A stretch of DNA of 64,000 bases from Octopus sinensis (taxonomy: Eukaryota), in the NCBI RefSeq assembly GCF_006345805.1, contig NC_043010.1, forward strand, positions 59,830,001 through 59,894,000, in the 5' to 3' direction. Every line of letters starts with the position of its first letter. Position 1 is the first letter of the stretch. Shown in pieces: positions 26,311 through 63,224 of this stretch. The translations under genes and the position numbers were made by a program. The notes below the pieces were generated by a model. The model ran no database searches. It was not told the DNA's origin and was given only the letters and a program-made list of their open reading frames with translations.

Positions 26311-28300
26311 ATCATCATCATCGTTTAACATCTGCTTTCCATGCTAGCATGGGTTGGACGATTTGACTGAGGACTCGCAAACCAGATGGCTGCACCAGGC
26401 TCCAGTCTGATCTGGCAGAGTTTCTACAGCTTGATGCCCTTCCTAATGCCAATCTCTCTGAGAATGTAGTGGGTGCTTTTATGTGCCACTGGCACGAGGG
26501 TCAGTCAGGCGGTACTGGCAATGGCCACGGTCAAATGGTGTTTTTTACGTACCACTTGCACAGCAAGCAGTCCAGCAACACTGGCAACGACCTCGCTCAA
26601 ATGTTTTTTCACGTGTGCCAGTAAGGCGTCGCTGGTAATGATCATGCTCGAATAGTGCGTTTTATGTGCCACTGGCATGGAAGCCAGTTAGCTGTTCTGG
26701 CAACAAATACACTCAGATGGTGCTCTCAGCGCTCCACTAGCATGGATGCCAGTTATGCGGTGCTGTCATAGATTTCGATTTCACTTGCCTCAACAGGTCT
26801 TCGCAAGCACAGTTTAGTGTCCAATAAAGGAAAGGTTTGCATAATTGGGCTGGTTACACCCCTGGCATAGGCCACAAAGTTTAGGTCTCACTTGGCTTGC
26901 CGGATCTTCTGAAGCACAGCATATTTCCAGTGGTCACTAGTCATTGCCTCAGTGAGGCCTAACGTTCAAAGGTCGTGCTTCACCACTTCATCCCAGGTCT
27001 TCCTGGGTGTACCTCTTCCACAAGTTCCCTGAACGCTAGGGTGTGGCACTTTTTCTCACAGCTATCCTCATCCATTCTCACCACATCTGATGCTTCTTAG
27101 GTCCAACTTTTCTCTCAAGATACTTACACTCTGTCGAGTATGTACACTGACATTACACATCCATCGGAGCATACTGGCTTCATTCCTTGCGAGCTTATGC
27201 ATGTCCTCAGCAGTGATGGCTCATGTTTCACTGCCAAATAGCATGGCTGTTTGTACACAAGCGTCATACAGTCTACGTTTTACTCTGAGCGAGAAGCCTT
27301 TTGTCACCAGCAGAGTTAATAGCTCTCCGAACTTTGCCCAGGCTATTCTTTATTCTAGCAGCAACATTTTCAGCACACCCTCCCCCACTACTGACTTTGT
27401 CACCTAGGTAATGGAAGCTATCAACTACTTGTAATTTTTCTCCCTGGATTGTGGCAGAAGTTGTTCTCTGCACATTTTCAGTGTTTATTGCTCCTGAGTA
27501 TCTGCCACATACAAAAACTATCTTCCCAGTTAGCCTTCCTTTGATATTGCTGCACCTCTTATGTGTCCATAGCTTACACTGGGTACATCTTATGGAGTTT
27601 CTACCTACGCCTTTTCTACAGATCGAGCAGGGCCATCTACCTCAAAGGATTTGTGGTTTACCTGCCTTCCTACTTATTAAGACTTTGGTTTTAGCTAGGT
27701 AGACTCTAAGGACCTTCGATTCTAATCCTTGCTTCCACACCTGAAACTTCTCCTCGAGTTCTGATAGTGACTCAGCAATTAGAGCAAGGTTGTCAGCATA
27801 GAGGAGCTCCCAGGGGCATCCTGCTGACTTCAATTCGCCTGTTATTGCCTGGAAGACTATGATAAATAGGAGGGGGTTGAGGACTGAACCCTGGTGGACT
27901 CCTACCTCTACCTGGAATTTTTCTCTGTACTTGTTTCCAACCCTCACTTTACTGACACTGTTCCTGTACATGGCTTGCGCAGCTCTCACTGACCATTCAT
28001 CTATCCCTAGTTTCCTCATTGACCACCAGATAAGGGATCGTGGGACCCCGTCAAAGGCTTTCTCCATGTCAACGAAAGCCAGGTACAGAGGATTATCTTT
28101 GGCTAGGTATTTCTCCTGCAGCTGTCTTACTAGAAATATGGCATCAGTGGTGCTTTTCCCTGGCACGAACCCAAACTGCATCTCATCTCAACTGACTCTC
28201 TCCCTAATTAGTTGGGCTATGACTCTCTCCGTGACCTTCATTACCTGATCTAACAACTTGCTACCTCTGTCATTATTTGTATCTAAAGTGTCACCTTTAC
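26311..28300 (-). mobile_element. 5'-truncated RTE-clade LINE (reverse transcriptase remnant) in intron 1 of copy 4
   Basis: Minus-strand ORF 27642-28181: QFGFVPGKSTTDAIF...AFVDMEKAFD...GVHQGSVLNPLLF...LLYADNL (RT motifs, YADD mutated to YADN). A downstream fragment contains FHYLG; (GAT)n tail at 26311. Confidence 0.92.
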
Positions 28301-39631: not shown

Positions 39632-42600
39632 ATGAAGATGGTCTTAATAGCGATATGGATATTACAGTCTCTGCTTCACTGTTCTGTCTCTAAAGACATT
39701 GTTTACCATGTGAAAGAAGAGAACAGTCCTGTTATCAACATAGGAGACATTACTGCTGATTCCCAGTTAAAGGACACTGCATTATTATCGTTCAGTCAGT
39801 TGCAACAGAAGGGAACACAGCTGTTTAATGTGACCACCACTGGGAAGATATACACCACACAAACACTGGATGCTGAGTCTCTGTGTACTTTTGAGAAAGA
39901 ATGCTTTCACACAATTAAGGTAGCCGTTCATAAAGCAGGTAAATTTATAAAGATATTGAAAATTAAGGTGATTATAGAAGACATCAATGACCATCAACCA
40001 GAGTTTCCTGTGGAACAAATTAAGATGGAATTTGATGAAAGTCATGGAAAAGGTACAAAACAATCGATTCCCAATGCCATTGACAAAGATGTTGGATTAC
40101 AGAACAGATTAGTGAATTACGAATTGAAGGGAAATAACCAACAGTTTTCTTTGTCCACATTTCAGATAGCAGATAGTTTGCTGTCATTAGAAATCGTTTT
40201 AGAAGAAAAGTTAGATAGGGAGACGAAAGACAGATATGATATAGAAGTGATTGCTAAGGATGGAAGCAATCCACCCAAACAGGGTGTCTTAAATGTGCAC
40301 ATAACTGTGAAAGATGAAAACGATAACAGACCAATTTTCTCTGATAAAACATACAATGTCTCTATACAAAGTAACCATCAAAGGAATATACCGGTTATTG
40401 TCATGTTGGCAAAAGACTCTGATATTGGAGAAAATGGTAAAGTTTCATATTATATCAGTTCCTTAACATCTAAAGACTCAATGAACAACTTTAGGATAGA
40501 GCAGCAATCAGGGGAAATATTCCAGTCTAAACATTCTAATTTAGAAAAGAAGAAATCATTTAAATTATATATTGAAGCCAGAGATGGGGGCAGCCCTCCT
40601 CTCAGTTCCATTGCAACTGTTATGGTAAATGTCATCAACCAGCAGAACAATCCCCCAAATATTGATGTGAACTTTATTTCTACACAGAATCACAACACAG
40701 CTACCATTCTGGAAGACATCAAAGTTGGTAGTTTCATTGCTTATGTGATGGTCACTGACAATGATGTTGGACACAATGGACAGGTGAACTGTCATATCAA
40801 AGATGACACATTCAAACTACAGTCAATGGGATCGAAGGAATATAAAATAGTTCTAAAGAAAGCAGTAGACAGAGAGACACAGGAACATTATCACTTTACT
40901 GTGTCGTGTGAAGATAAAGGATTACCTGCTCTGAAACTGATAAAGATCTGTCAATCCAAGTGTTAGATGTGAATGATGTAGAACCACACTTTACGAAAGA
41001 CACATTCAAGTTCCTTACCTATGAGAATGACAAAGCTAATTTCCCTATTGGCTTTATCAATGCTACAGACCCAGATATTGGTAAGGGAGGTGAATTGTCT
41101 TATTCTCTGAGAAATAAACAGCAATATCGTCTGCCATTCCAGATTATCAACTCTGGCTTTATTTCAACAAACCAGTCTTTAGACAGAGAACACAGAGATT
41201 TCTATGAGTTTGAGGTTTTGTGAAAGACAATGGAAGCCCATCTCTGAATAACACAGTGAATGTTGAAGTGGAAGTATTGGATAGAAATGATAATACTCCA
41301 TATTTTACATTTCCTAGTGTTGACCCTTTCACTCTTAATGTCCACTATCATCCGCAAAGTAAGAACGACATCACAGTTCTGAAAGCATCTGATATAGACA
41401 GTCACATGAATGCTTTTCTCAGGTACGAAATCGTTTCAGGTAACGAGAGACAGTTATTTAAACTGGATTCGTTCACTGGTGTGTTATCTTACTCTCGCAC
41501 AGTTTACCAAAATGATGCCGGATCATATGAGCTTGAGTTTGTTGTGAAAGACAGTGGTACTCCAGTTCTGTCAGCAACAACTAGTGTGTCTTTGACACTG
41601 ACTGTTAGTAACAAGACGTCACCAATGTTCACAGCTGTGCACCTACCAAGTGATAACACAATAGATGCGACATTGTTGATTATCATTGTAGTAGCAGCTG
41701 TGATAGTATCTATAGCTATTGTGGTTTCTATAACCCTGTGTATTGTGAGATGTAACAATGTGAGAAATAGCTCATCTGAAAGAACAGCAGAAGAGAAACA
41801 GGCATACCAATGTCGCAATGAGATGAGACAGTTGATCTATCAAGGTAACAACAGTGTACCTGTGATGTCAGACAGATATGGTCATTCGAGGAGTCATTAC
41901 TATCCCGAAGACTGGAAGACGTCAACAATGAACAGAACACTCCAGAAGTCAACAAGGGTAAGTATTATTTTTAGAAAACTATGAGTGTATTTGACAAAAG
42001 TAAAATTAAGTACATGTCAATGGTCTATTAGAATGAGTAAATGATTGATGAGGATGGCTTGAAATATTTGTTACCAGCTCTTTATATTCTGAGTTCAAAT
42101 CTAGCCGTACCCTACTTGGGTTGTAGATCTGAATGTGTCACCAAGTTTAACATCAACTCTTTCCAGTTTAGAACAATTAGTGGAGGTGATCACTTCCTTT
42201 ATCCTCTTACTAATTGATAAGGAATCAATAAAAATCTAGGGTCAGTATATTTAAATATACCCTAAATTAGAGATTATAGCCATGTGTCTATAGTAGAAAT
42301 GAATATGATTTAACCCTTGTAAATATTTGATAATTAATTATTGCTATATGATAAGTAGGGCCTGGAGCTTGAAATGAGAAATCTCCCTGGAATTTAGCTG
42401 GATGATGTCAAGAAGAATGGCACTGCCATCATTTCTCTTCAAGTTACTCTTCACATCACTGCTGACATCTGACATAAATATTGCTGTCACATATGAACCA
42501 TTTCAACTTTATTCCTCTGTTTTCTCCGCAAGATTGCCTATATGAAGGGGGCCAATCTATATGAGCCCTATCAGATTTGAGGCATTCTGTTGTTTTTTTT

Positions 42601-43767
42601 TCTCATTTTAACGAGTGTCTTGTTGCAGGCAACTTACCCATTTAGCTGAAATCCCTTTAGCCAAACGAATACTCTTGTCACCAATATCTTCTCTTTGACA
42701 TCATCTTTTGCCATTTGCTGCTTCTTTTCTGACTGGGAATTACTGTCTTCTGGTTATGTTTTCAGTGTCTACCCCCTTCCGGGACAGACATGGTTGGTAT
42801 CTGCATCTCTGTTGGTGGTAGCAGCCTTCATACTGGGATGACAATGCAAAGTGAAATCCCTGTAGTGAACCTTCTCTACTTGGAGCAAAGGAAGGCATTG
42901 TAGGCAACAATCTGCAGGAAAGATAGGATGGGCTTAACAAAGATTCATCAATTTGAACATATTTAGCATTTTTTTTCCAATTTATGGTCACAAATTTGGA
43001 AACACAGAAGATATTCCAGAAATTTATTTAGTTAATGATGTTATCAAAACAATGACCTTAAACAAATATTTGGATATATAACATCTTAATAATCCTCAGC
43101 ACAAACCTGTTTTAAATATTTAAGATAATATTTGCAAAGATAAATGTGTATTTAGTTCAAAGGCTGACCAATTATAGAATCTCTCTCTCTCTCTCTCTCA
43201 CCTGTCTGCTACAGCACTGAAGTTATTTGACGGCAAAACTGTGATAAATTATTCAATATTAGATATAGCATTGATGGTCGCAAATGATATTTGTGCATTA
43301 TATCTTGTTACTATTGTATTTTACAGCAGAAATACAGTCAACCGATTGAGGTGACATCTTATGGAGACAACAGACCGTCTTCTAACTATCCCACTGACAC
43401 ATTGACCAGTCGTAAGAGCAGTGGACAGTACTGGAGTGAGCGGTCAAGTAGACAGTATGAAGAAATACCAGCAATGTCAGGTAGGATATCAATCCATTCT
43501 CATTTAATATTACAGTAATTCATTACTAATTATTGTATTAATTATTGTTGTAGACTGAGATGTAATTAGTTCTGTCTGTGTGTCCGTAGAGTATTTCTGA
43601 TGATGGTGATTGTTTCAGACATTGCTACATTAAAACAATGTTTTGCAGGGATCTATGGTAGCCAACAGGATACACCAGTGAACCCCGAAAGACAACAGTA
43701 TCAAGACAGATATGTGAAACCTCCAGAGAGACAGTTACCTTCAACACCAGATGTCATTACTAACTGA
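39632..43767 (+). pseudogene. Protocadherin copy 5, frameshifted as assembled (recent pseudogene or sequencing error)
   Basis: join(39632-41957, 43327-43480, 43649-43767). One A is missing from an A4 run (about 40934) and one T from a T5 run (about 41216), plus an in-frame 21-nt deletion at about 41870. Splice sites and the remaining sequence are intact. Confidence 0.8.
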
Positions 43768-44101
43768 CCACTGGTCATTTACTAAATATTGACAACTATA
43801 TTTCAGACGTGATGCTCCCTACACACTCATACAAACTAATATAAATATAACTTCTCTCTTTGCCAATTTTATACACCAACATATGATACAATATATAGAC
43901 ACTAACGGTGAAGTCAGCAATATTTCAGCCCGCATGTATACACACACACAGAATTTTGCATAATGTTATATATAAGCTAATATTTTCTTTATATTTCCCA
44001 AATATCCCTTGAATTAATCTAGAATATATTTCAAATATTGTTATGAAAATATTACATCCAAGAAATTATTGTTTAGAAAAATAAATACTAAAATGAACAT
44101 G

Positions 44102-44559
44102 TCTTAACCAGAACTGTTCTATATTAACATCATTTGTTAGTAATATATTTACCAATATCAGTGATGTTTTGTTAATATGAGATCCGTATGAAACACTGAA
44201 TATATATATATATCTATGCCAGTGTTATATAGTCTTATTATGGCTGACTGTTAGTGGGGCTGATATTCTGTATTCTTTCTTTCTTCTTCTGTGTGAGGGG
44301 AAATAGTCTGAGTGAAACTGGAATAAGCATCACCCATCTCTCATACACACACACATGTATATATACTTACACACACATTAAACACCACCCATCCACAAAG
44401 GAAGACTGAGAGGGAACTGCTGGTTCCCACTGACTCACCACCAACACTATTCCATCAACATGAAGCCATTGTCACACCATAGCAGCAGTGACACAGACAA
44501 CCATTAACAACAGAACATTGGGACCAAGTCACAGTTTATAACAAAGGATTTTACATGCT
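44102..44559 (+). promoter_or_regulatory. Orphan promoter and leader exon (ghost unit 6)
   Basis: The core 44390-44545 is essentially identical to the functional leaders and has a gtaagt donor at 44560. No cadherin exon follows. Confidence 0.75.
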
Positions 44560-44871
44560 GTAAGTATCAACATTTAGTTTTACTTACCTATTGCTGTTGT
44601 TGTTGTTTGTCCCCTTGGTCAGTTCTGGTCAAGTAATTCATGGAAATTTTTCTAATCATCATCACCTCTCTTTCACCAATTTTACCTTATTGTATAACAG
44701 TGTCCATCTGACCCTGTCCCCACCATGTGAGAATCCTGCAAAGAATTTCCCCTTGAATTTGAAATGTAGAAAACATTGTGTAGACTAGAAGAGTTATTTT
44801 CCTGTTGAAGTTTCTCTGTTTCAAAATATATTAAACTTATTTTAAATGCTTGAATATTGTTTCTATTTCAG

Positions 44872-44993
44872 GAGGTTCCAGTTCAAACTACCACTCCACC
44901 ATTTAACAATGTGAAACTCCATTATCAAGAAAACACACAAACCCCACCCCAGAAAGACAGTTTCTTTCAACACTTGATGCAAACTTAATCTGA
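44872..44993 (+). pseudogene. Degenerate protocadherin terminal exon
   Basis: tttcag| acceptor; 122 nt in the same phase as the 119-nt terminal exon; ends PERQFLSTLDANLI* versus PERQLPSTPDVITN*; internal in-frame TAA. Confidence 0.7.
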
Positions 44994-45486
44994 TAATCTT
45001 CAATATTAAAATGTTGAGAACTCCTTGCTTAAATTTTTACTGTGTTTTTTTATATGTATTTGTTCAGTTATAACAGATTATGTGATAATTATAATCAGTG
45101 TTTCTATGTTGAATATTTCCTTCGTATATTGAACAATCTAGAACAAAAACCAAAGAAAACTGTTTATGGACATTTTTAGAAAAGATTCAATTAGCAAACG
45201 ATGACAGTTTTTGAAAAATTTCATTTATAAAAAAGACAACAAAATTTGGTTTACGAAAATAAAATTTTAAAAAAATGAATGTTTAAAGTACCAAGACTTG
45301 TGGAGTTTGTTTCTATTTCACTTCATTTCTTATTCCATCGCAGAATTAGATCAGACACACGTGACATCTTTTGTCTTCCACTCTTTTTAACCGTTAGCTA
45401 GCAATTTATTAATATAGTAACAGCATGGGCTCTATTTTTATTGTAGAGATTAATTTTTGCTGAGCATTTTTGTGTCAGTGTCTTTG

Positions 45487-45829
45487 CATCAGATGTGTTG
45501 GTCTAATATGGATTTATTATGGCTGATATTGTGTGTTCTCCTCACTGATGAGGAACACAGCATCTAATCTGAATGAAGCTGGAGTAAGCATCACCCTTCT
45601 ATGTTACATCTTTATACGCACACACACACATACACACATTATACACCACCCATCCACAGAGGAAGACTTGAGAGGGAACTGCTGGTTTCCACTGACTCAC
45701 CACCAACACTATTCCATCAACATGAAGCCATTGTCACACCATAGCAGCAGTGACACAGACAACCATTAACAACAGAACATTGGGACCAAGTCACAGTTTA
45801 TACAACAAAGGATTTTACACACAATCAAT
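45487..45829 (+). promoter_or_regulatory. Orphan promoter and leader exon (ghost unit 7)
   Basis: The core 45650-45825 is near-identical to the functional leaders, with a gtaagt donor at 45830. The upstream part is diverged and no cadherin exon follows. Confidence 0.72.
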
Positions 45830-47025
45830 GTAAGTAGTTTTCATTTTAGTTTTACTTTGTGATTCTTTCTCACATCTTTGCTCAGTTTTGGTCTTGTTTC
45901 ATGTTGAATATTTCTCTGTTGTTTCTTAAATAATGCAAACAACAGAAGCTGGGAGAATCTGGGATGCTGAGACCAAAAAAAATAAATAATATTTTAAAAG
46001 ATAGAAAATACTGTTAGGACAATTCACAGGAAATTTCTGAGTTGCCAGGAGAAAGCATGCTGTGCTTTTATGTCTCCCTCTGGTGTAAATGAAGTAAGAT
46101 CATTGTACCAAACATCATTTTGTAAGATTTTGCATCTGATAGGTCTGTGTTGAATTGTTACATGGAGTCCTGCAATTGCTGTGTGTCTATACACACACAC
46201 ACACACAAATTGTGCAATATGTTTTGTTTTTGTAGTTTGTAATTTAACCCCAGCTCAGCCCTGAACCAAACCTGTAATCAGACACGGTCCAGTAGTATTC
46301 ATTCCATCTTTAGTTCAGCATAGTGTATCTAGGATCTTAATATTTCAATGTTGTCTTCTTGTTCTTAAGGTAGTGTGCAATGATTTGAGGTAAATTTAGC
46401 TGCTGTTTCTAACAAGTTGTGGTTCCCTCATTCACTCCATTATAATTATACAGTTATTGTAATAGGGGAAGAGAAATGTTGTAGGTGTCATTTGTAAAGG
46501 AGGAAACTGGTCATCAGACCTTCCAATGTTGCCCATCACACCACCACCATTACTTTGTTGTTGTATTCCACAGCCTGCATTTCAGGGTATACACGAGTGG
46601 TGGGAGGAGGTGAGATAGTTACCCTCAGGCAGGAGGCATCACCTAAATACTTGCAAAAGAGTGACCTCTGCAAAATGTACCCCAGGTTCGGGTGGTGCCT
46701 TTAGAGTAGAAGATGGATTTAGTCTGCAAACTGAAGGACACTAACAGTCCCTGCAAACTGAAGGACACTAACAGTCCCTCAGTCCACACGATTTCTCTCC
46801 ATCAGATTTCACTTGCAAGACTTTGGTTGACCTGAGACTGTAGTGAAAGACATTTGCTCAAGATATCAAAAAGTGTGAATTTGAAAAGCATCTGCTTCTG
46901 AAGAGAGAACTTCTTAATCGCAGTCATGCTTCGAGTTTTGCATTGATGTAGTTTCAGTTAACATCCAGGAGAATATTGCTACAGAATTCCTCAAAAATCT
47001 TGTTACTATTGCAATTTAACTTCAG

Positions 47026-47137
47026 ATCTAATTTTTATTTGACAACAGGACTTGCCATAATGGCAGAAATACATCAATCATTGACTTACCTATTACAAGA
47101 GAAACAAAACTGGGGCAGAAGACACGAAAAATGTCAG
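47026..47137 (+). pseudogene. Probable relic of the penultimate protocadherin exon
   Basis: The upstream atcttgttactattg is identical to the sequence before the copy 5 exon-3 acceptor. The exon is 112 nt (3n+1, same phases as exon 3), translates I*FLFDNR...GQ...MS versus DNR...GQ...MS, and ends ATGTCAG|gtaaga as in copy 4. Confidence 0.55.
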
Positions 47138-47394
47138 GTAAGAAGTCAAATTACTTCTCGGCGTAATCATTATGATATGATGATTAATTGATATGGAACT
47201 GAATGTTAACACCATAGCATCAATAACAACAAATGAGGAGCTTACTTTCAAAATCGGTATAAGTGCATATTTGGTTGATTTCATGATGATCATTAAAACA
47301 CAATCTGTAAGCTGCTGGCTTCATCATCATCATCATGAAATTTTTTTTCAGTCAAACTGTGATAGAAGCCAGTAGGCAAATCTTAGTCTTCCAA

Positions 47395-47617
47395 TGTGTA
47401 AACTGTGGGTATGGAGGTATGGTATCTCCTATGTATATTTCCTATTTAGTATTGGGGAGGTTTCATTTATAAGGATGTACTCCTGTATTTATCCAAGCAC
47501 CCAAAAGATCCAACACTCAGACAAAACAGGAGTACATCCTTATAAATGAAACCTCCCCAATACTAAATAGGAAATATACATAGGAGATACCATACCTCCA
47601 TACCCACAGTTTACACA
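47395..47617. repeat. Perfect 92-bp inverted repeat with a 39-nt spacer
   Basis: 47395-47486 is the exact reverse complement of 47526-47617. Confidence 0.92.
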
Positions 47618-50430
47618 GGTAGAGTAGAATGGTTAGGGGACTGTCAGGTAGATAAATGTATGTGTGTGTGTGTGTGTGTGTGTGTGCACCTTTTTTCTTT
47701 TTCTGCATGTAAGCATATAGACATGAAAATAAACAGATCAACAGACAGATATGTACATAGACTACAAGAACAGACACATATGGAGACAGAGATCCACACA
47801 TATAAAGATGCACATCCATGCATACAAACATGGTACATAGTTACATAACACATGCACACACACACACAAGGAGACAGAGGTGCATACATATACAAACACA
47901 TGCTCACACACACATACATAGAAAATATACTAACACGGACATGCAAGCACATAAATATGCAGGATACGACACACACATATACATACGTACACATGCATAC
48001 GTACATGCATGCATGCATGTATAGGCACACACATACGCTTGCGCACAAACAAACAAAAGGGAATGCAGTGTAACTAACAGACAGAGTCAAGACTATTGAA
48101 AAGGTTGAAAGATGCAACAAAAATTTTAGGAAAATAAAAATAAGAAACAAGTGGAAATTTTACCAGTGAATGTGTTACATTATAAGGCACAAAAAAAAAA
48201 TGACTCTCCCCAGACACAAGAGAGTAAAATAGTTTTGCCAGAGGCACAAATCAACCCATGTGATAGGTTATTGATTGATAGCTTTTTAAGATATTGATAC
48301 AAATGGACATACTTAGATCAGAGAGTTTTCTTTTTAATAATTTTCATATTGGCACAGCCATGCATTTTACTGCCTCAGCTTCTTATTCAAAAGCGATGAG
48401 CTTTTCCTATAAATGATGTGAAGTGATTAGTTGAGCTCCCAGCTTCCTTTGGTGGCCATCATCAAAATGAGTGAATTAGAGAATTAGTGTTTATTATTGT
48501 GAGGATGGATTCTTTGACTGTCCAGAAAATCATCATTTTATGACCTTCCATTCTGGCATGGATTGGGTGGTTTCACAGGAAATGGCACCAAGGTCTGCTG
48601 TCTGTTACAGCATCGCTTCTTTCTACAGAGTGTACTGGGTGCTTTTTATGTGAGGCCACCAAGTAATTTGCAGGACAAGACCCCTGAACTGGGTGTGAGG
48701 TGTGGGAGGGTAGTATTGAGGGACAGAAATGGTGTCTTGCATCAGAAGAGAAACATGGTTATCTCAGATGGAGAGAGGGGAAGGGGCAGGGGTCGTACTC
48801 CCCAAGTTAGAGGGTGGTGTATATAGTGAAGAGGACCAGGGATTGGAAAGGGCGAGATAAAAGGGTGAGTTCACAAGATTTCAAAAGGGGGTTGGGAGGT
48901 GGAAGAGATGTAATGAGTTGGCACTGGTAGAGGGAGGGGACAGTTGTAAGGAAGGGATTAACAGGGGCATTTTGAGTGCAGGTAGGTATGTGAGTTAAGA
49001 TGGATGGCAGAGGGAGGGGCATGGAGGTGGATTTTACGTAGCTGGGCAGGTCTGCTCAAAGCATAGCAATTTGTCTCAGTCGTTTGTCAATGAGTTTCCA
49101 ATTCTTTGAACACCTGAATTCTTATGAAATGAAGTGAATGTCGAAGTGGCTGAATATTCCACAGACATATGTACCCTTAAAGCTATTCTCAGACAGAATC
49201 AGAATGACACATTGTGGCTATGCTGGACCTTTGAATTACTGGTACATTCCAAAAAAAAAAAAAGGGGAGGAGGGAGAAGAATTGACTCCCCCCCCGTACT
49301 GAAAGGATGAAGATCAAAGTTGACTTCACTGACATTTGATCTCAAAGTGCAAAGAACCAGAATTGATCCTACACAGCATCATTCCATCTGGTGCTCCAGC
49401 GATTTTGCCAGTTCACCAATTTAGTCTTTATTATTATTATTGTTGTTTTGCTCTAAGTCAGTACCTGATTGAGCAGACCTTCGCTTCGATCAAAGGGATT
49501 CCAACTGCAACCATCTCATCTTTTTCTTGTATTCAGAGAACCCAGCATCATGTTGTCAAATGTGTTCTCTTGTAAGATGGTGGAGTTTGATTTGAGGGAG
49601 ATTTGCCTGCTTCTTCTAGCCAGTCAAGTAACTGTTTGTGTGTATTGATTGGATGTTGGGGTATTGTCACTGTTCAAAAACTAATTACTGTTGGATGGAG
49701 TGAGGGCCGGGTTCATTAACACTAAACACTGATTAATGTTATGGTTTACTTTATTGATTTCATTATTTGTTATCAAATAATAACAACGAATGAGTTTCGA
49801 GCACTAGGCTGGTCCTGGTTGGGCAGAAATTATGTTCAAAACCATCCTGTTCCTTTACAAGAGTGGAAGCCTACATTATCTTATGTACCTTTTCGTTATT
49901 TAAGACAGTAGAGTGTGACTTGAAGGTGATTTAGCTGTTATTTTAAGCACATTAAGTGACTACATAGATGCTCTTTTGTTGGCTCATTATTATCTGGGCA
50001 ATTCTGTCAAGTCCCAGATCAGCATTAGTTCAGCAGATCCAAAACATAGCAGCAATGACCATTATTTAGAACAGGGTTGAATGTATCTTTCTCATTTTTT
50101 TTTCCAATATATATTTTCATTTCAAAATTCTTGGTAAATGTGGAATCTGAGTGGATAGAAGAAGCCAGAAATATACTGGAAAGATCGGTATACTGTTCCT
50201 TTATTTAGTTTATCCTAGAAAATTGAAGACAAATTTGACTTTGTTAGGATTCAGCCTCAAAACAGAGGCTAAACCCCACAGTAGTCTCTGTCTGATGCTC
50301 TCCAACTTCTGCCGTCCATTGCTTCTATAAGAAACAATACACAATGTTTGTGGGGGTGGAGTCTATCTTCCATTGTTAGTGTTAACTGTTTCTAAACTAA
50401 ACCAGTTTACTAATTGCTTAAGTCTGACAT

Positions 50431-50593
50431 AGGCGCAGGAGTGGCTGTGTGGTAAGTAGCTTGTCTACCAACCACATGGTTCCGGGTTCAGTCCCACTGC
50501 GTGGCACCTTGGGCAAGTGTCTTCTACTATAGCCTTGGGCCGACCAAAGCCTTGTGAGTGGATTTGGTAGATAGAAACTGAAAGAGGCCCGTC

Positions 50594-50634
<41 letters not shown>

Positions 50635-50860
50635 TGTGTGTGTTTGTGTGTCTGTGTTTGTCCCCTAGCATTGCTTGACAACCGTGCTGGTGTGTTTATG
50701 TCCCCGTTATCTAGCGGTTCAGCAAAAGAGACCGATAGAATAAGTACTGGGCTTACAAAAGAATAAGTTCCGGGGTCGAGTTGCTCGATTAAAGGCGGTG
50801 CTCCAGCATGGCCGCAGTCAAATGACTGAAACAAGTAAAAGAGAGTAAAGAGTAAAAGAG
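50431..50860 (+). mobile_element. Full-length octopus-type tRNA-derived SINE
   Basis: 5' A-box-like TGGCTGTGTGG and B-box-like GGTTCAGTCCC, internal (TA)n(TG)n, 3' (AAAGAGT)n tail; CpGs retained. Confidence 0.85.
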
Positions 50861-52377
50861 TGTAGAGAGTACTCTGACATGTGCAAGCTTCAGTTGAAAT
50901 TAGGGAAAGCTTTGTGAAGAATTAACTGGATTGGAGGTACAAACAAACCCTAAGACCCAGTCTTCAGTGTGGCAATGTTAATAAGCCAGTTTCCTTCAAG
51001 CAGTTATTTCTATGAAGGTGATATTTGTTGGCCACAATAACACCACCACCACCACCACCACCACCACCCTGCCATTTGTGACCTTTGGTGAAGTCCAGAC
51101 ATTTAGGCAAGGTTTCTGGTCTGGAAATACCATACATCCTCCCTTTTTTTTCTTCCTTCCTCTCGTTAGTCTTTAAAACCCCTGAAAAGGGTCTCCTGAC
51201 TTACAAAATTAGAAACAAAACAAAAATACTATTACCATCTAATTAGTCAATTTGTCACCAGTAATTGAATAGTAATTTTTATAAACGTTATAAAGCTGCA
51301 AGTCACAGTAATTTATGAACTATTGTTTACATGCAAGCTGTTAATTAATTAGCTAAGATAATTAGCCAATCTGTTTCCTTGAAGGGCACAATCTGTTTTA
51401 CATTGATAATTGATCTTTCATTAATGTAAATGATTAGCATTCAGTAGCTCAATCAGCTGAACGTGGCTGGGTATTCCATAGACACATGCACCCTTGCCCT
51501 ACTTCTCGGGGCAAATCAGCAATGTGTGGCGTGGCTGGAGCTCCTCACAGTTCTCATCTAACCTGTTTCACCCACAAGGCTTAGGTTTAACCTTAAACTA
51601 TTTTTAAAATATTTGATCAAGATGCCATGCTCGGGGAATGAAATGACCAAATCCTTAAGAAAAGGAATCGGTCACTTCGACGCCCCCCACCCCCACCACA
51701 CACAAGTGCTTCTACCATTATCGTTCTTCGCTCTCCTCATCTCTATCCCCCGGGTTCGCGTGTTTCTGTCTTATTGTCTATCGCCTCCTTTCTCCTATCT
51801 CAAAATACCACAGATGTTTTAATTCGAGGAGAGAGAGAGTTGGCTGCCATTTCTAGCCGATCGGGCGACCATGTTGTCTTCCTCGTGTTGCCGCCATTAC
51901 TCCATCAACCGTGCATGTTGCACACGTGACTGACTGACAGCAGTTCAATGCAACTGGAATTCCGTTTTATTGCATTCCAAACACATTACCAATTCCATCA
52001 GATGAATGAAACACCATCACCTCCCCTCCTCCTCCTCTCTTTGCACGCACGCCATCGCACACACACACACACACACACACTGAGAACAGATGCTGCTATT
52101 TATATATGCACATATTAATTAATGAATGCTTGTATATGCAAATAAATACATTAAGCTACACATCTACTCTCTGCCCAACGTGCTTATATGCATTTGTGTG
52201 TCTATCTATCTATCTATCTATCTATCGATCCACACACACGCAAGCACACCGAGAAATAGACATTTCCTGTGTTGACAATGTGTAACAATATCGTATTTAT
52301 ACTCTACGACGGCAATTTAATAAACTAAATATGTGTATACATAGAGAGAGGGAAAGAGCGATAAATGTGCGTGTGTG

Positions 52378-52433
<56 letters not shown>

Positions 52434-52705
52434 ATTTGTGATATTTTACTGTTCTACCTCCATATCTTCGTGAGTTATTTTTGAGTAAACATTATCTGGG
52501 AGATTTTTCTTAAAGTAGTGGAAATGGCTAAAAAAACTTTTTGGCTGCTATTTCTAGAAAGTTTAGTATGTGGCAAAGTAATTTATTTTACTAAGCCCTA
52601 ATTATATAATGTAATATTTTGAATTCGCCTTAAATGGTCCTTTTACATACTGAACACTACTTTGGTGAAATTGATTAATAACTAATTAATTTTACCCTCA
52701 ATTAT

Positions 52706-52761
<56 letters not shown>

Positions 52762-54782
52762 CACACACAACCGGCCACCCCCATTATGATTATATATAAA
52801 AGATGGTCGAGCTGTTTATATATGTCGATATATTTTATATTGTTTATAGAATAACGGTTACACATACATACGTGTATATATATTCGCACACATGTTCTCT
52901 CACACGGACACAAAATATATGGAGAAGAATTGATGCAAAATGCATGTGAAAAAAGAAAAAAGCGGTAAAAATGTAGGCAGGAGAGAAAGTGCGTGAGAGA
53001 ATGAAGAAGCATTAATCTAGGATGTAGAAAAATTCTAGATGAAGATGCTATTTCCTTCCTTCCTTCCGTCTGCCATTCCCTCGTGATGATGCCATTCCGA
53101 TTTTGTCACCAATTATAATAGTCTCTTTCATTTCCAATCCAGCAATCAACCTCGCTAATCCCAAGTTTTATTTTTTTTTAGTTGTTTTAAGATATATTTT
53201 TTTTAGGGGAAATACCAGCCTCCCCACTTTGTGTAATTAAGGGAGTGTGTGTGTGTGCTTCTGTTTTATTTATTTACAAACCCCCCCCCCTCCTCTATTA
53301 TTACCATTTTCTTTCCTAAAGTGGTTTATTTCTCATTGGATTATCGCAACAGATTATTCGTCTCCAATTTCTGATTTAAAAGCGAAATTAATTATATCAA
53401 GTCATTAATTATTTATTATTATTAGATGATGATGATGATGATTATTGCTATATAAACATCAGCCGTTGATACCGTTCTGTCAACATCCAGTTTCTACGTC
53501 CGACATGCTAGAAATAGCAGCCAAGTACTCTCATTTTTAACCCGACTGTCTTAAAAGGTCATGTAGTCGAAGATATTTGTGGTGGGGGTTGTGACTGGAT
53601 TGTCTTGGATTTACGAGACGAGGCCAATTTCCAACCTGACACTAACAGGGATGATGGAGATAACCTAGATTAGTCCATGTCTTCCGCAGATCGCACTCGA
53701 CGATGTAGATATGCATAAAGACGTGACGGTCACTGTTGGAAGGCTTTTCATGGTCCCTGAGAGTCTAATAGAAGAAAGTAAAAATCGAATAGGAACTATT
53801 GTGGGAAGCCTTCTCAGTGGCCCCAGAAGGTTGTATTTTTGGATGTCATCTGTGCCAATCTCGATGCTAGAAACAGCAGCTAAATCTCTTTCAAATCAAA
53901 CCTTACCACTAAGAAAGTAAGGAGAGTGTAATATGTTGTCCAACATGTATAATATCTGACAAATATACGAACCGGAATCTGCTAAAACGTTGGGCTGCCC
54001 CCCATCCCCCCAAAGAAAGAAACATGAGTTTTATGTATTAATTATTTCATTGAGAATAAAGTCTTTAATTACAATCTAGTTAATATCTTTCAATGTGTTT
54101 GGCTTATACTACGATTGGCACAGCTTTTGTGTCTGACTTGAGAAAGAGAGAGAGAGAGAGACTGGTGTGCAACGATAGCATGTGCCTGTGTATATAATGA
54201 TGCGTGTTCTTCTTTAATTTGTCTCAGAAGCATCGTAAAATCGAGAGGTTAAAAGTAATAGAAATACAATGATAGATACCCGCCATTAACTAAATACTTG
54301 TATCTGGGGTAGTAGCACATTCGGAACGATCTTTTCTCCCCCCCCCCCGTTTTCCTCTTCTTTGTTATAATTTAGTGTTTAAATGATGCAGTTCGCCTGT
54401 TAACGCTCCCCACCAGCGGCCAACGGTACCTCTTTACATCCCGTATTAGACTTGTAGGACAGCATTCGTAAATGTAGAGACAATTGTCAATAGTAGGTGG
54501 ACATTGTGCTTGAGCAGAATAAGGCGAAGGCATAAACCATTACAACTCAACATTTACAGAGAAGAAAAAACATTTCCCCGAGAAAAGTATCAACTTCCGC
54601 AGAAAACGACTGATTCGCCGAAATCGGTTGCTCTGGGAAAAGATGACGCAAAAGCCCCAAATAAAGACATCTAAACCCTCAGACGAACGGAAGAATTTAT
54701 CACGTTTTTTAATTAAAGAAAAACAAAAGCTCAAACTGACAAATGGGGGACGATAAGGATGTGCCCCAAAATATAATAAAAA

Positions 54783-55212
54783 GGCAATCTTTCGTCTCTA
54801 GTAGACCTTTCCGTCGATTTCCGTAAATTTTTTTTTTTTTTTTTACATATGGGCTTGCGGGAACTTTTGAAGTAATGAGAGCGAAAGAGACTAAGAGAAA
54901 GCGATTGTATGACGAGGGAAGTTCTTTTGAAGTTACCGTGCATGGGAAGCATTGATGGACATGTGTGTGTGTGTGTGTTTGATGGGGTGTGGGAGACAGA
55001 CAGTATGTTGTGTAAGTGAAGTGCTTCTGTTAGTGTGTGGGAAGAGACAGACAGAGTAATGTGTGAAAGAGAGAGATAATTGAAATTTTTTACTCGGTGT
55101 ATGTGTATATGTATGTATATTACTTCAAAAGTTCCCGCAAGCCCATATGTAAAAAAAAAAAAAAATTTTTACGGAAATCGACGGAAAGGTCTACTAGAGA
55201 CGAAAGATTGCC
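54783..55212. repeat. Near-perfect inverted repeat with about 94-bp arms
   Basis: 54783-54876 and 55119-55212 differ only in homopolymer runs; the spacer of about 240 nt is GT/GA-rich. Confidence 0.88.
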
Positions 55213-55864
55213 ATAAAAAGATATTGGTGTACATTATCGAGGAAAACTTAGTTCATAAATATCTTCTGATCTTCATTTTAAAAACAAAGAATCCACCAAA
55301 AAGGCAAACACTAAGAATTCGTTTCACTTTATTCTTTATTTATACCCTTTGTTGTTGTCCAGCTCCAGGTTAGCCCTGATGAAGGAAATTTTATCAGGCA
55401 TTCTAACCATGGCCATCTTGTCTTTGCAGAGAAGACACTATGTTTTCCAATGTGTCATTTCTTTTGAATGACTGGTGGAGATTTGGCTGTTATTTCTAGC
55501 AAGATGAGAGCACAGAGTGAACCATTTAAGTACAGCACAATTGTAACAAGTTCTTCCTCTCATTTATCTGGAAAACGAGCAAGTTCCATGTCTGTGTAAA
55601 GAATCGATATTACACACACACACGCGCGCTTCCGAAGGAATATTTGGAGAAGTTTTTATAAAAATAAATAAAAGTAATTTACGAAAATTAGGTCAAGTAT
55701 TATTGAATTTATATTTAATTTGATTTGCCTTTTAAAGTGACGTAGCATCTGTTAGTCTAGAAAAAGTCTAATCAATTGGATGAAAGCGAAACTAAATTGG
55801 AGGTGTGGCTAGGTGATTTCAATTTCCCGTTCAGTCGTAAATGCTTGGCTGGATCTCAGGCTAA

Positions 55865-56050
55865 ACTGCTGGCTGTGTGTGTGTGTGTGTTTGTGTCTCT
55901 ATACGGCTGTGTGGGTTTATGTCCCACACTGACTGCTGGCTGTGTGGGTTTATGTCCCAGACTCACTGCTGTGTGTGTGTGTGTGTGACTGTGTCTCTGT
56001 ACGGCTGTGTGGGTTTATGTCCCACACTGCTGGCTGTGTGTGTGTGTGTC
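55865..56050. repeat. Minisatellite (ggctgtgtgggtttatgtcccacact interleaved with GT tracts)
   Basis: Three copies of the core and two of a longer unit. Confidence 0.8.
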
Positions 56051-56635
56051 CCCGTGTGTCACAAATTGACAGCTGTGTGAATATGTGTTTATGGAGTCTC
56101 CTACGACTATGGCTGGCAGGCAGGCGGAGAGAGAGAGAAAAGAGCTGTGAGACGAATGTTACAATACCTATCGCCATTGATAAAACATCTACGTAAGCTG
56201 GTGTCACACAACCAACTCAGCAGTCACACACGGCAGACAACGATTATTAATTCACTTAACTCACAACATAATAAATAAACTCGACAAGTCACAGAGAATA
56301 AACAGACACTCTTCTTTCTGTAACAAATGTTTGGCTTTCTTTTTGTTTACATAAATATTGTCGGTCAGGGTTGGTGATGGCGGCGGCGGTGACTGCCGTG
56401 GAATTTGCTTTAAAGATGGTGTTTTCGTTGCTAAACATTCTTCTCCTTTCTGCGACTTTATGTAGCAGGATTGCTTAGGGGGCTGCGTATATACACTCGC
56501 TGTATACATGACCTCCTACACGACATGCAGGGGTCATGCGAGTGTACAGCACATAGATGCACTTGTATTACATGTCTATACAGCAACTCAAGTCTATTCT
56601 CAGGACTACAAACACTCGCACGTGTGTGGGTGTCT

Positions 56636-57555
<920 letters not shown>

Positions 57556-58084
57556 TAATGATGCTCAACATCTGTGTGTCTGTATTGCATGAAAGGGAAT
57601 AGAAGATACATAAAATTTACTTTCCATTGTCGTTAGGGGGCTTAAAGTGGGGGGAACAGCCTCTCTGAAAGTCCAAATACCTCCGATTTCCATGAAAACA
57701 ACAACATAACTACCAGCTACTAAATAAAGATGATTTCCAAAATTTCACCATCTTACATTATTATATAAGTCCCCCCCCCCAATGGGGTTTATAACATGGG
57801 GCAGAGCCCCTTTACATCCGCTTGTCATGGAAGATACATAAAATTTAAGAGTGTGTTCTTGGAGTAAGTTTACTACAAAACTTCAACAATGCATATCTCA
57901 TGTGTATATATATGTATATATATATATATATATTTACATAGATATATATATATACACATGTATGTATGTATATGTGTATGTATATATATACATGTATGTG
58001 TATATATATATATACATGTGTGTATATGTGTATGTGTGTATATATATATATATATACATGTATGTATATGTGTATGTATATATA

Positions 58085-58282
58085 ACGGGAAAGTTTACGA
58101 AAATAAACAAAAGACGAAGGCAGGAGGAGTACAAACAAACAAATGTATTAGTATGGCGCTCAGGAATAGAAATAGAAAAAGTCTTTTACGTTTCAAGCCT
58201 ACGCTCTTCGACAGAAAGATACACAGAAAAGAACAAGGAGAGAGAAAGATGCATGTAGGAGCTAAATGTACGTATGTGTGTA

Positions 58283-58337
<55 letters not shown>

Positions 58338-58371
58338 GTGTATATATATACACACATGTGTATATATATTT

Positions 58372-58408
<37 letters not shown>

Positions 58409-58650
58409 CATATAGTTTTAAATATATATATATATATATATATAGATAGATATAGTTAATCCAAACATGAAAACACAACAACGCGAGGACGTGGAACAAG
58501 TATAGTGTTACTGGATGCTCAGGAAAGGAAAGAAAGAAGGAAGATTTAACGTTTCGAGCAGAGCTCTTCGTCAGAAACACAGAAAAGGGAAAGATCCAAG
58601 GAAGGGAAGACGGAGGGGAAAAAAATCGCCAATGATACACACGCGAAATA
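58085..58650 (-). mobile_element. Probable Penelope-like non-autonomous element with two hammerhead-like motifs
   Basis: Minus strand: TCTTT-CTGTCGA-A-GAGC-GTAG-GCTT-GAAA-CG-TA-AAAGA (58182-58219) and CTGACGA-A-GAGC-TCT-GCTC-GAAA-CGTTA (about 58544-58578), each followed by a pyrimidine tract and TTCCTGAGC. Confidence 0.6.
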
Positions 58651-59008
58651 TATATATACATATATATATAATACAAAATACACAGTTATGTCTTGAGTTA
58701 GCTAGTAATAACAATAGTGAAAATATAAAACAGACTGGAGTTGTGGGGCTCCAAATGAGCTATATTCCACTTGTTAGTTTGAAGGGAGGCAATGTGAGCA
58801 GGAACTAAAGGAACATTACGAAGATCCACACTCAAAGATCAAATACAAACACATATTCATTTATATCTACAGAACGGATACAAAATTCGACTTATATAAA
58901 TATAATAATATATATAGATAAAAATTATATAATATATATAGGAATCAGTGCTACATACAAAACAGTGAATTTACGCTTAAAGTTATAAAACATTGGTAAA
59001 TTAATAAT

Positions 59009-59141
59009 TTGGGATAATACAACATATAAAGGACATATTAAAACGACATATTAAAATTTGTATTTTTGTATGTTTTCTGTATTATTTCTGGAATTTTAAT
59101 ACGTCATTTTAATATGTCCTTTATATGTTTTATTATCCCAA
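59009..59141. repeat. Imperfect inverted repeat with about 50-bp arms
   Basis: tgggataata..catataaaggacatattaaaa.gac.tattaaaatt versus aattttaata.gtc.ttttaatatgtcctttatatg..tattatccca. Confidence 0.8.
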
Positions 59142-59599
59142 AATATACATGTATGTATGTATATATGTGTATGTATATATATTTATGTATTCACACTGGT
59201 ATGGTGTGCACTTCAGAGCATGTAATTTATAATTCAAGCATAATTGCAGAGTATTTATAGTAAATAAGGGATCAAGAAATTATATGTAAAGTTTCTTAGG
59301 GTTGTTTCTAGAATAGCTGAGCATAGGGATCATATGTCATTGAGCAAAGCTTTCCATGTGAGCCAACTGTTCCGTCTTTGGAAAGAAAGAATTAAGGAAT
59401 ATCTTTGATAAAGGATATTAGTGGTTACCAGTTCATCGAAGAATTAAAGAACATACTCAGTGAAAGATAAGGGTGGTTAGAGAATTAAAGAAATCCTTAG
59501 TGAAAGACAATAGCAGTTCGTAGTTCCCTATTTGAAGAATCAAGGAATATTCTTTGTAAAAGATGAAAGAAGTTCTTAGTTCCATCTTTGAAGAGAAAG

Positions 59600-60260
59600 T
59601 TGACACATATCACAGGAAACTATGTAAATCTCAGAAAAGAACTTGCTGAAGAATATGGTGCAGAAATAAGTCAGCAGCTTAAATGATGAGTTCATTTCCT
59701 ATCTGATACCCTGCATAATGGAATCCTTGAGGCACATGCTCATAACACCCCACATGAGGTGAGAAAAGAAGTTGAAGATTCCATGTTTATTGATGTTATA
59801 TGTGATTGCTCTGGCATGGAACAAGAATCAATTATTGTCGTTTTATTTCTGAAAACCAGGATGTCCACAAAGATTTCCTCAGCTTTGATGACCCTCCTGA
59901 CCACACCTTGGACACACTGACTAAGGCTATTCTGGATGTTTTTGGTTGCCTAAACATTTCTCTGGACTCAAAATTATGCTGCTTCTGTCTTTGATGGTGC
60001 AGGTACCATGAGCGGAAACCTTCCAGGCACACAAAAGAGATTAAAAGACATGTTTCCTGGTACATACTTTGTACACTGCAGAAACCACTCTCTGGGTTTT
60101 GTCCTCCAAGAAGCTGGATCTACAATTGTCCTGGCCACTGATGCATTGAGCTCTGTTCACCAAAACACCATTCTTCTGAAAGCGTTACAGACCAGTCTTT
60201 GTGATGAGAATGTCATCATGTTGCAAGCCTGTGTCTGTTGCACTAAGTGAGAGAATGTTC
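59600..60260 (+). mobile_element. Degenerate hAT-family transposase remnant (ZMYM1-like)
   Basis: Frameshifted translation VHKDFLSF...TLTKAILDVF...DGAGTMSG..GTQKRLK...YFVHCRNHSLGFVLQEA contains the hAT DGA and CxxH motifs. It is preceded by short direct repeats (gaagaattaaggaa, 59380-59600). Confidence 0.75.
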
Positions 60261-62413
60261 AGCACCTTTCACTGTTTGAAGACCTCACTCCATACCACAA
60301 TGACGCAACACCGTCTGACACACTGGGCTGTAATGCATGGACACAAAAACTTGTGCAATGGAAACACTTTGCACATCCTCTTGGAAAACTTCATCACCAA
60401 AACGAACCAGTTTGGAAAAATTTGGGGAATGATTTGAAGCATTGCTTTGCCATATATTTAAAAAAAAAAATATTACTAGACCTGTGTTTGTTTTGATATT
60501 ACGATCGAAAAAAATATTTGGGCCTGAGCTTTTATCCCGTAAGCAAATTTCATTCCTGGGCCACTGTCAGCAGTGTATACTGAATGTTTTAGTGTCAGAA
60601 ATAACACATACACAGAATCACACCACCCATACACGTTGCTATATGATGTGTTGAGGTATGTGTATTTGTATACATACCATAAACACTGGCACCATTAATA
60701 GTATCCCCACCACTACATCACTGTGGTTGTGTACACCATTGCTACACAACAGCATCACCTTGAACCAATGAAGCAGCTTCTTGGCAGATGGTCACACAGA
60801 CAGAAATAACAACCAAATTTCCCTTGACCCTTCAGCATTTGAACCAGCCAAATCTGGCCCAAATATTCTACCTTTTTTTCTGTTCAAAGCAGCCCTTCAA
60901 TGTCATTCTAATATTATAAACAATCACACCATTGAAATCTTGAAGCTATGAGATAATGTATGATTAACTGAAAACAGTGTGGATAAATAAGGATTACATT
61001 TGACAATAATCTGAATAATGCCAAGGGGTCAAGTCACACTTGAAAAAAACAAAAGAACGACACATTGGAAAAGCAATGTCTGAATAAAAGACTGGAGGGT
61101 CACTGCTTGAAAGTCTGATGATCGGTCTACTAGATCAGTGTTGACCTTGGGTTGAACAATACTCCAACACTAACACCACATTTTCATTATTACCACCTTC
61201 ACCACTAGGCTACCACCTCACCAAATTCCATACTGCACAGGTCCTGGATGCAGAATCTCTCAAGAGAGAATGTTTTGCACATTGTGAAGCTGGGAGTCCA
61301 TCAAGCAAAGTCAGTTCTTGTAATAATAATGAAGGTTTTCTGTATTTCCCTACACTCTTTCCATAGCCAGAACATTTAACTATTGACGACCAGGTCACTT
61401 TCTATACGTAGATACTACAGTGTGGTATAATTCATCCATAAAAAAGACATTTAAATATTAGCAACTCATTAATTAACATTAACAGACAGAAAAAAAAGTG
61501 ACTGATCAAAAAGCGTTGTGAGTGGATTTGGATGATGGAAACTGAAAGAAGCCTGTTGTGTGTTTGTGTCCGTGTCCATGTCTTGACATCATGTGATTGT
61601 TGTAAATGAATGTTACTAATTCCCCATGTTCTGTGAAAATATTTCCGGCATGAGGAAATATTACCTTCCTTAGGAACAAGTTTGGCAACAGGAAGAGCTT
61701 CAAATAAACTCTGTCCAACCCAGCAAAGCATGGAAAAGGGAACATTAAGAGGATGGTTGGCATTCACTGGAATGGTTTCTGCTCCAAGAATTTCAGGAAG
61801 AAATGAAGATCCTATGTGGGGAAACTTTTATAAGGTACTTCTCATTTTGAAGAAGTTGATGTTATCAAGTTCAGCAGGATAGCTTTTACTGAAACTTTTC
61901 AGTTGTGGCCATCATATTATTGGTCACTGATAAGGGAGAGAAATTCAGTGAAGCAAAGAAGATGTTTCCATTACATTTAAGATTGTTGAAGTGAAAGAGC
62001 AATGCTGTGGAAATAAATGACACAAAATTGTGTTGTCCAACCAACGTATACCAAATGTTTTAAGATAGAAACTATGTGACACGTCCATGTTTTTATAACA
62101 CAATACACCTTTCAAACCACTCCAAGAAGTGGAATTATTGGTGGAAGACATGGCTATTACACCAAATATCCATTTGTGAGAAGAATCTTGTATGAATGTA
62201 TTTAACAACTGAAGAAAACACCAATTCTCAACTAATTCCATCCCCAATAATGTTTCTTGTATTCTCTAAGCCATCAGCTTTAATCATCTCTCACTTCTTG
62301 CTAATATGCCAGCTAATCTTTCTCCCACTTTTTGCTGTCTAATCTTTATCTCTGCACTGAATTATATCAATTACTGTAGATGTTTATTAATTTAGTCTGT
62401 TCTTTCTATTTAG

Positions 62414-63224
62414 CAGAATCACAATCATCTTACAGAGGACCAGAAACAACACACCATTGGCCATGAGGAATCTCTGAGAATTCACAATGGCTTCCAACCA
62501 AATTGGAATTGAGCAGAGAGAAACAACATGAAGAAATCCTGGAAGAATTAGGTTTAAAATGTCTACTGCCTTTTCATAACATCTGTCAATGGGGGTCTAA
62601 CGAATAATCTGCAAATTATTAATCCTACATGATATATACTCACTACACCCATATAATAATAATAAAACATTGTGTACAGCGCTCAGGTGCACTACAACTC
62701 ATCTAAAGTGTATGTATAGTGCATAGGGTAATGTACAAGCGTCAGGAAAAGAACAGTGCATGAGTCATGACATACACATATGTGTATGAGTATGGAAGGG
62801 GGACAATCAGGTGTAGTTTTGGCGGATTTCAGAAAGCATGAGGGCCTTAAAGGATGCAGTGTCATGGCAGTCAACAACTGACGCAGGCAATTTGTTCCAT
62901 GCTTCAGCAACTCTGAGCATGAAAAAATGTTTCCGAAAGTCATGGGAGCTGTGCTGTTTTCTGACTTTGTAGGCATGTCCACGTGTGTTGGACACATGGA
63001 GATCAAAAAGGTGTTCAGTGTTGTTGTTGGTGAGGTGGTTGATAACCTTGTGGGTGTTTACCAAGTCCGTCGCCAGATGCCGGAGCTTCAGTGAATCCAT
63101 GCCCAGGGAAATATATTTATTTTAGGAGTGTATAGCAGTGAGAGAGAGAGACCATTACCAAGACAGACTTGTGAAAACTCCAAAGAGACAATTACCTTCA
63201 CCTCCAGGTGATGCTAGAAATTGA
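62414..63224 (+). pseudogene. Two diverged protocadherin tail exons (ghost unit 8): 62414-62551 and 63126-63224
   Basis: tttag|CAG acceptor, ending KQHEEILEEL-G|gt (compare RQYEEIPAMS-G). The second exon reads G-VYSS...HYQDRLVKTPKRQLPSPPGDARN* (compare G-IYGS...QYQDRYVKPPERQLPSTPDVITN*). Each exon carries one frameshift. Confidence 0.8.
62655..63108 (-). mobile_element. 5'-truncated CR1-group LINE 3' end inside the last intron of ghost unit 8
   Basis: Minus ORF 62807-63100: SLKLRHLATDL...NTRGHAYKV...FFMLRVAEAWNKLPASVV; (TTA)n tail at about 62655. Confidence 0.85.

Follow-up and report, generated by a model that had tools for sequence, protein, structure and literature searches.

Transcribed unprocessed pseudogenes with islands of gene conversion are the class to which the protocadherin (PCDH) relics described here, the ghost units, compare. 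The likeness lies in a tandem origin, retained introns, a disabled coding sequence, residual transcription and patches of identity; the ghost units differ in that the island is a leader exon, recurs in two independent relics and has less than the usual length of a converted tract. The genomic setting has been described as well. According to the available parts of two papers on coleoids (PMC9068888, PMC9795677), PCDH sub-arrays consist, as here, of head-to-tail multi-exonic duplicates that are homogenised by conversion and include pseudogene-like frames in squid, but an invariant non-coding leader, orphan leaders and spliced units devoid of an ectodomain do not feature in these parts. Octopus PCDH read-through is mentioned in the available text of PMC9712504, where it is noted and corrected away as gene fusions. 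RNA crosses one unit into the next at the present locus too, but the downstream partner is a decayed unit joined through a defined GT..AG junction. In vertebrates, a conserved element, the CSE, is found at the start of every Pcdh member (PMC7811963, in part), as the leader core is in octopus. The CSE precedes the start and consists of a short CTCF site with a CGCT box, whereas the octopus core is 168 nt long and exonic. Of the enhancers HS5-1 and HS7, HS5-1 lies 30 kb past the last exon, is flanked by CTCF sites and is not described as a gene relic in the same part of that source. Among the titles and abstract openings retrieved, nothing concerns an invariant octopus PCDH leader or ghost units, and the literature found holds no account of how cephalopods choose among 150-290 protocadherins; Albertin 2015 and the supplement of PMC9712504 may bear on these subjects.

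The window, the whole 64,000-nucleotide stretch of Octopus sinensis DNA that was analysed, contains a PCDH tandem array with five ectodomain exons, all on the + strand (Table 1). Each unit begins with a non-coding leader exon, followed by the large exon, exon 3 (154 nt) and the terminal exon 4. The intact copies have six cadherin repeats (one Pfam Cadherin_2 and five Cadherin stretches), a transmembrane segment (TM) and a tail. Four of the reading frames are full and one is frameshifted, and the tandem order in a single orientation is that of clustered protocadherins. Identity to the 120 homologues listed is 80-93%, and copy 1 is closest among them to an O. sinensis protocadherin (93%). A convincing translation of the leader is absent from all 120. 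The distance from a stop codon to the donor of the next leader is only 935-1013 nt (0.8-1.0 kb in another statement).

The large exons are 90-96% alike. The number of variable columns per 150 is 1-5 in EC1, EC4-6 and TM versus 10-56 in EC2-3, the variation being concentrated in EC2-EC3 and at the exon end (alignment columns 301-1050 and 2101 to the end). Low variation in EC1, EC4-6 and TM together with high variation in EC2-3 resembles the vertebrate conversion pattern. In copy 5, one nucleotide is missing from each of two homopolymer runs (40934 and 41216), which may reflect errors of the consensus; a further deletion, of 21 nt and in frame, lies at 41864 between short direct repeats. A reverse-transcriptase fragment is located in the first intron of copy 4 (27645-28187, - strand). 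Four public gene models (P0127, P0138, P0156 and P0158) are fusions of up to five adjacent PCDH genes, and the O. bimaculoides model P0121 consists of tail exons only, through either an annotation artefact or read-through.

Table 1. Features of the PCDH array and of its ghost units (window positions)
Feature	Position	Strand	Remarks
Ectodomain exon ATGs	4130, 12196, 19070, 28595, 39632	+	Five PCDH copies
Copy-5 exon 3	43327-43480	+	GT..AG intron joint to exon 4 in both RNA runs
Copy-5 terminal exon 4, coding part	43649-43767	+	Same GT..AG joint; joint absent from both DNA runs
Copy-5 3'UTR	43768-44101	+	AATAAA 313 nt past stop; RNA contigs continue into the 44102 block
AT-rich 121-nt block	44102-44222	+	Candidate 3'UTR or promoter element
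O1 proximal promoter/leader 5' part	44259-44389	+	Diverged, 76-78% to L1-L5; RNA contigs 44240-44312, 44283-44419
O1 leader	44390-44559 (core 44390-44555)	+	Donor 44559 used in RNA run X9
O1 intron, 312 nt	44560-44871	+	Replaces ectodomain exon and exon 3; bridged by X4 DNA contig 44515-45610
Spliced exon	44872-45610	+	X9 contig; decayed terminal exon and former 3'UTR, into O2 promoter; possible 3' end at O2 donor
O2 leader	45651-45829 (core 45651-45819)	+	Two substitutions and one insertion vs L1/L2; donor 45829
O2 intron, no ectodomain exon	45830-47048	+	Bridged by organism D DNA contig
Decayed exon 3	47049-47137	+	89-nt RNA piece from AG to old donor; homology z 5.4
Third ghost, EC1 relic, frameshifted	61223-61328	+	nhmmer E 0.001; tblastn E 5e-5 to Argonauta P0032
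Third ghost, exon-3 relic	62414-62551	+	P0032 ranks first among 120 tails: 48% over 29 aa, E 5e-7
Third ghost, terminal-exon relic	63126-63224	+	nhmmer E 4e-12; 71-81% over 21 aa

Seven leader cores are present. Five of them (L1-L5) precede full ectodomain exons, and the remaining two, O1 and O2 (anchors 44410 and 45672), are orphans. The orphan cores are 166-168 nt long and 98-100% identical to the functional ones: in either orphan 165-166 positions agree with L1-L5, out of 166 in O1 and 168 in O2, with one indel each (2 nt in O1). The flanks, by contrast, are 57-79% alike overall (76-79% in the proximal upstream segment), while the initial 150 bases of the intron and the 200 preceding the upstream AT-rich block (59-67%) are near unalignable. 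The borders of the core are sharp, and identity between paralogs above that of the flanks, ending sharply, is the mark of a gene-conversion island. The original observation of a near-identical core within strongly diverged flanks, with both donors persisting, thus holds, the donors at 44559 and 45829 both being GTAAGT. The core is the most uniform part among the intact copies also; L5 is 85-87% identical to the other intact copies upstream and 99-100% in the core. At 22% neutral divergence and with no conversion, cores with so few changes would occur with a probability of about 1e-18 (O1) and 1e-15 (O2). Cores like these cannot arise by drift alone at the level of divergence seen in the flanks. 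Of the marks of a structured ncRNA or miRNA, an Rfam match at E<=1 is missing from both cores and the fold of the core is not unusual (z 0.30); the region around the core contains one CpG. An upstream ORF of 15 codons and a single AP-1-like site are present in all seven cores. The leaders L1-L5 have, right before the donor, an ATG codon pair that O1 and O2 lack, and the O. vulgaris model P0027 appears to begin from a leader-end ATG of this kind.

A second invariant element, the AT-rich 121-nt block, occurs at 1725, 9462, 16676, 24112, 33412 and 44102. The copies belonging to L1-L5 and O1 are identical at 121/121 positions, the (AT)n run included, and in O2 the block is unrecognisable (64/111). 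It follows all six intact tails, and local alignment of the 3' region of the O1 relic is at the level of shuffled sequence. In O1 the block sits between unalignable flanks. It shows 0/122 differences in organism D, a sampled octopus about 3% diverged in introns, and its fold is not unusual (z 0.74). The block may belong to the 3'UTR of copy 5 and not to the ghost promoter; an alternative reading is that of a conversion patch.

The tails of the two orphan units have decayed to 65-72% similarity. The terminal-exon relic, aligned over 44848-45025, is 65% identical to copy-5 exon 4 (z 7.0, 0/300 shuffles reaching the score), in agreement with the decayed terminal exon that had been placed at 44872-44993. 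It contains a stop, and its homologous peptides lie in different frames. The exon-3 relic, aligned over 46990-47150, is 72% identical with large gaps (z 5.4, 0/300 shuffles) and falls short of the 154-nt family exon by 42-65 nt. Its homology bears out the proposed relic at 47026-47137, but the RNA starts at 47049, directly after an AG, and not at 47026. A metagenome scan with exon 3 confirmed none of 592 stretches. No cadherin-repeat match was found within 44041-47137 by tblastn, nhmmer or protein HMM, just as had been claimed for the space between leaders and relics; over the wider 44-62 kb proposed for a tblastn of EC repeats the result is mixed, given the EC1 relic of a third ghost. O1 and O2 thus lack the ectodomain exon of a clustered protocadherin, and the deletions are bridged in DNA. 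The longest ORF of the ghost RNA is 59-73 aa in five assumed exon chains. Homology in place to an intron-bearing parent, combined with stops, frameshifts and deletions, is characteristic of a transcribed unprocessed pseudogene.

The possibility that the large exons were dropped by misassembly was considered, as copy 5 carries homopolymer-type deletions and the copies are closely alike. Contigs of 4 of the 24 listed sequencing runs were aligned, two of DNA (X4 from organism B and X8 from organism D) and two of RNA (X9 and X11). X4 contigs cover 43764-44131, 44515-45610, 45806-46176 and 46217-47285, and X8 has a single contig from 45806 to 47318 as well as pieces across O1. Seven of the 24 listed runs contain 50% or more of the words of 44545-47300, and when the possible source study is excluded, five runs from three studies and two organisms remain with at least 70% of the words. 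Misassembly is therefore rejected as hardly credible, the deletions being bridged by DNA contigs from two other organisms. The loss of the ectodomain exons is real and common to the sampled octopus lineages, and since the contigs of organism D bridge the deletion sites, the deletions predate the split from it.

No run that contains the stretch is on record as RNA; X9 and X11 were classed as such because the intron between the functional exons 3 and 4, used as a control, is spliced out there at a GT..AG joint that is missing from X4 and X8. The predicted 44559>44872 joint was found exactly, with GT..AG ends, in one X9 contig, whose shorter arm measures 29 letters, and transcription as judged by a spliced joint in one of the two RNA runs is shown for O1 only. 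X11 has neither the joint nor cover at 44670-45221, an absence that carries no weight as the records are filtered. By a rough depth comparison within X9, the contig with the joint is deeper than that of the intron (181.7 versus 12.4). The other predicted joint, 45829>47026, was not seen in the two RNA runs, where cover begins at 47049; the O2 donor shows no joint of any kind in either run and the O2 intron has little or no RNA cover, which in filtered records again carries no weight. The first 89 letters of a 375-nt X9 record correspond to 47049-47137, starting after an AG and leaving the stretch at the old donor, and the other 286 letters come from elsewhere; X11 does not show this exon.

RNA contigs of the copy-5 3'UTR extend over 43741-44131 in X9 and 43756-44113 in X11, and in both runs the cover passes from this unique sequence to the block at 44102 and to promoter sequence of the O1 type. 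Such cover fits read-through from copy 5, although the contigs are unstranded and do not represent single molecules. In X11 an O2-like leader end runs, after 45821, into at least 255 letters absent from the window (3 mismatches allowed). This loose end was not assigned to O2 because the contig start points suggest a sister leader elsewhere; it is probably that of another gene. In organism B, the joints 43481/43483>45554, 45594>44383 and 43484>45716 combine the exon-3 end and O2-like promoter or core in one contig, and one such joint is also found in X9. They possibly represent further ghost or compact units elsewhere in the cluster.

The orphans had been thought to mark the cluster end, in loose analogy to the downstream control elements of vertebrate Pcdh clusters. 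This idea is not supported, given the third ghost at 61-63 kb and the further Argonauta PCDH genes that come after. Argonauta P0032 is the best match of the EC1 and exon-3 relics of the third ghost among the 120 proteins listed; the frame of its terminal exon has shifted in a (GA)n run. P0032 is intact in Argonauta, and the third ghost looks like a lineage-specific gene loss. The Argonauta order, inferred from accessions, which follow the locus tags in the three of three cases that could be checked, is P0023, P0003 and P0002 (the closest to copies 1-5), then P0032, then P0034, the last of which resembles the intact O. vulgaris P0028. No annotated Argonauta gene has an accession between P0002 and P0032, the position of O1 and O2. 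The presence of the third ghost downstream and the Argonauta order suggest that the orphans probably mark the boundary of a sub-array, not a cluster end. The array probably continues downstream of the window, with an order beyond 64 kb taken from other species. The intervening DNA contains a long hairpin-forming inverted repeat at 47420-47592, whose Rfam miRNA matches are far below the gathering score, and a 94-nt inverted pair, 98% identical, at 54783-54876 and 55119-55212; both are probably transposon-derived. There are also a 760-nt (TA)n array at 56797-57557 and, by eye, a putative decayed hAT transposase at about 59.6-60.4 kb.

The account to which we assign a probability of roughly 0.55 is that the ghosts are transcribed, spliced, non-coding relics, whose core is kept identical mainly by conversion from leaders that are themselves under selection. 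O1 and O2 are what is left of a pair of older PCDH paralogs, whose ectodomain exons were deleted before the octopus lineages sampled diverged. In one RNA run the O1 donor splices to the next available acceptor, that of the decayed terminal exon, which continues through the O2 promoter. Some of the RNA would reach the ghosts as read-through of the copy-5 3'UTR and some would start at the leaders that were kept, and the product, having no cadherin frame, is most likely non-coding. The core would be an invariant leader of the whole family, which purifying selection preserves in the functional genes, and conversion from the many identical donors would copy it onto the orphans, with no function of the ghost itself being required. 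Both homogenisation of coleoid PCDH arrays by conversion and PCDH pseudogene fragments are reported in the available part of PMC9068888. At this locus, too, the patchwork of variation in the large exons suggests that conversion is visibly active. In organism D the core contig has 0/111 differences and is 24-38 times as deep as unique contigs. Depth measures copy number poorly, so this hints only roughly at many identical copies; the contigs collapse the copies of the core into one. Core and block together have 0/233 differences in this organism, whereas introns have 49/1635 (p=0.003; p=0.07 for the core by itself), a contrast indicative of selection on the sequence of the family. Several observations speak against conversion as the whole explanation. 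The donor tails are equally uniform (exon 3 98%, intron 97%, exon 4 99%), yet 0/4 tail relics have been kept identical versus 2/2 cores. Conversion typically needs a few hundred matching bases, according to the part of PMC3924837 available, and an island of 168 nt is therefore short for it.

Selection on the ghosts themselves for a regulatory job is a serious, though less probable, reading. The ghost might act as a spliced 3' extension tuning copy 5, where introns past the stop could trigger decay, as an ncRNA or promoter competitor at the sub-array boundary, or as a source of extra first exons for a downstream gene. Both cores and their GTAAGT donors are intact while the coding tails have decayed, the exon-3 relic exits at its old donor, and the rough depths in X9 favour the spliced form. 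The ghost exon, which has no donors in the window, differs in organism D at 10/745 positions versus 49/1635 in introns (p=0.015, post hoc), and its first 304 nt contain a single difference (p=0.003). Against this, the segments were chosen post hoc, the same exon in organism B (2/739) does not differ from the O2 intron (4/1413, p=1.0), which contains repeats, and the core has neither an unusual fold nor an Rfam match; conversion, moreover, is evidently active at the locus. As regards the neutral evolution expected of a pseudogene, organism D thus hints at constraint, and organism B, compared with the O2 intron, does not. The choice between selection and very local conversion, as originally posed, thus leaves both viable and probably acting together. 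A more speculative proposal, which we regard as rather improbable, treats the sub-array as a series of overlapping units. Each 3'UTR would enter the next 168-nt leader, whose donor splices read-through RNA onward, making the leader both a shared start and the point of coupling between neighbours, and the ghost leaders would be selected as splice sinks or competing promoters tuning expression at the boundary.

Recent loss would explain the identity in another way, by old, divergent parents that already had the invariant core and too little time for it to decay. PCDH genes with divergent tails flank the group in Argonauta (P0033, P0032, P0034), and at 3% divergence the two changes of O2 in 168 positions would be unremarkable (P=0.12). 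The absence of change in the 166 positions of O1 is unlikely even then (P=0.006), the deletion is common to organism D, and the gap between the P0002 and P0032 accessions offers no annotated Argonauta counterpart. The stop, the frameshifts and the 42-65-nt shortening of the relics make this reading less likely still, and we consider it unlikely. A tail-only micropeptide of 58 aa is very improbable. It would be encoded from an ATG at 47060 by the 89-nt exon spliced to the far terminal exon at 63126. The frame is open, the ATG has A at -3 and G at +4, the 47137-63126 join would bring the conserved PCDH C-terminal motif into frame, and the X9 record does continue for 286 letters beyond the donor. 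But 17-26% of nearby 30-codon windows are open by chance, the downstream exon is not seen in RNA, and among the proteins of 22-72 aa in the collection none has three 5-residue words in common with the frame.

Taken as relics maintained mainly by conversion, the spliced ghost PCDH units would be a variant on the known pseudogene theme, with a regulatory role, such as that of an enhancer or decoy promoter, as a candidate only. If they are neutral, they offer a clean example of a short island of conversion and call for caution in read mapping, because leader and read-through reads are not assignable to single genes. The overlapping-unit arrangement, if true, would represent a cephalopod route to PCDH choice unlike the CTCF-enhancer system of vertebrates. 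The invariant leader is a candidate promoter or 5'UTR element of the family, for which the leader-only units may serve as a natural deletion series.
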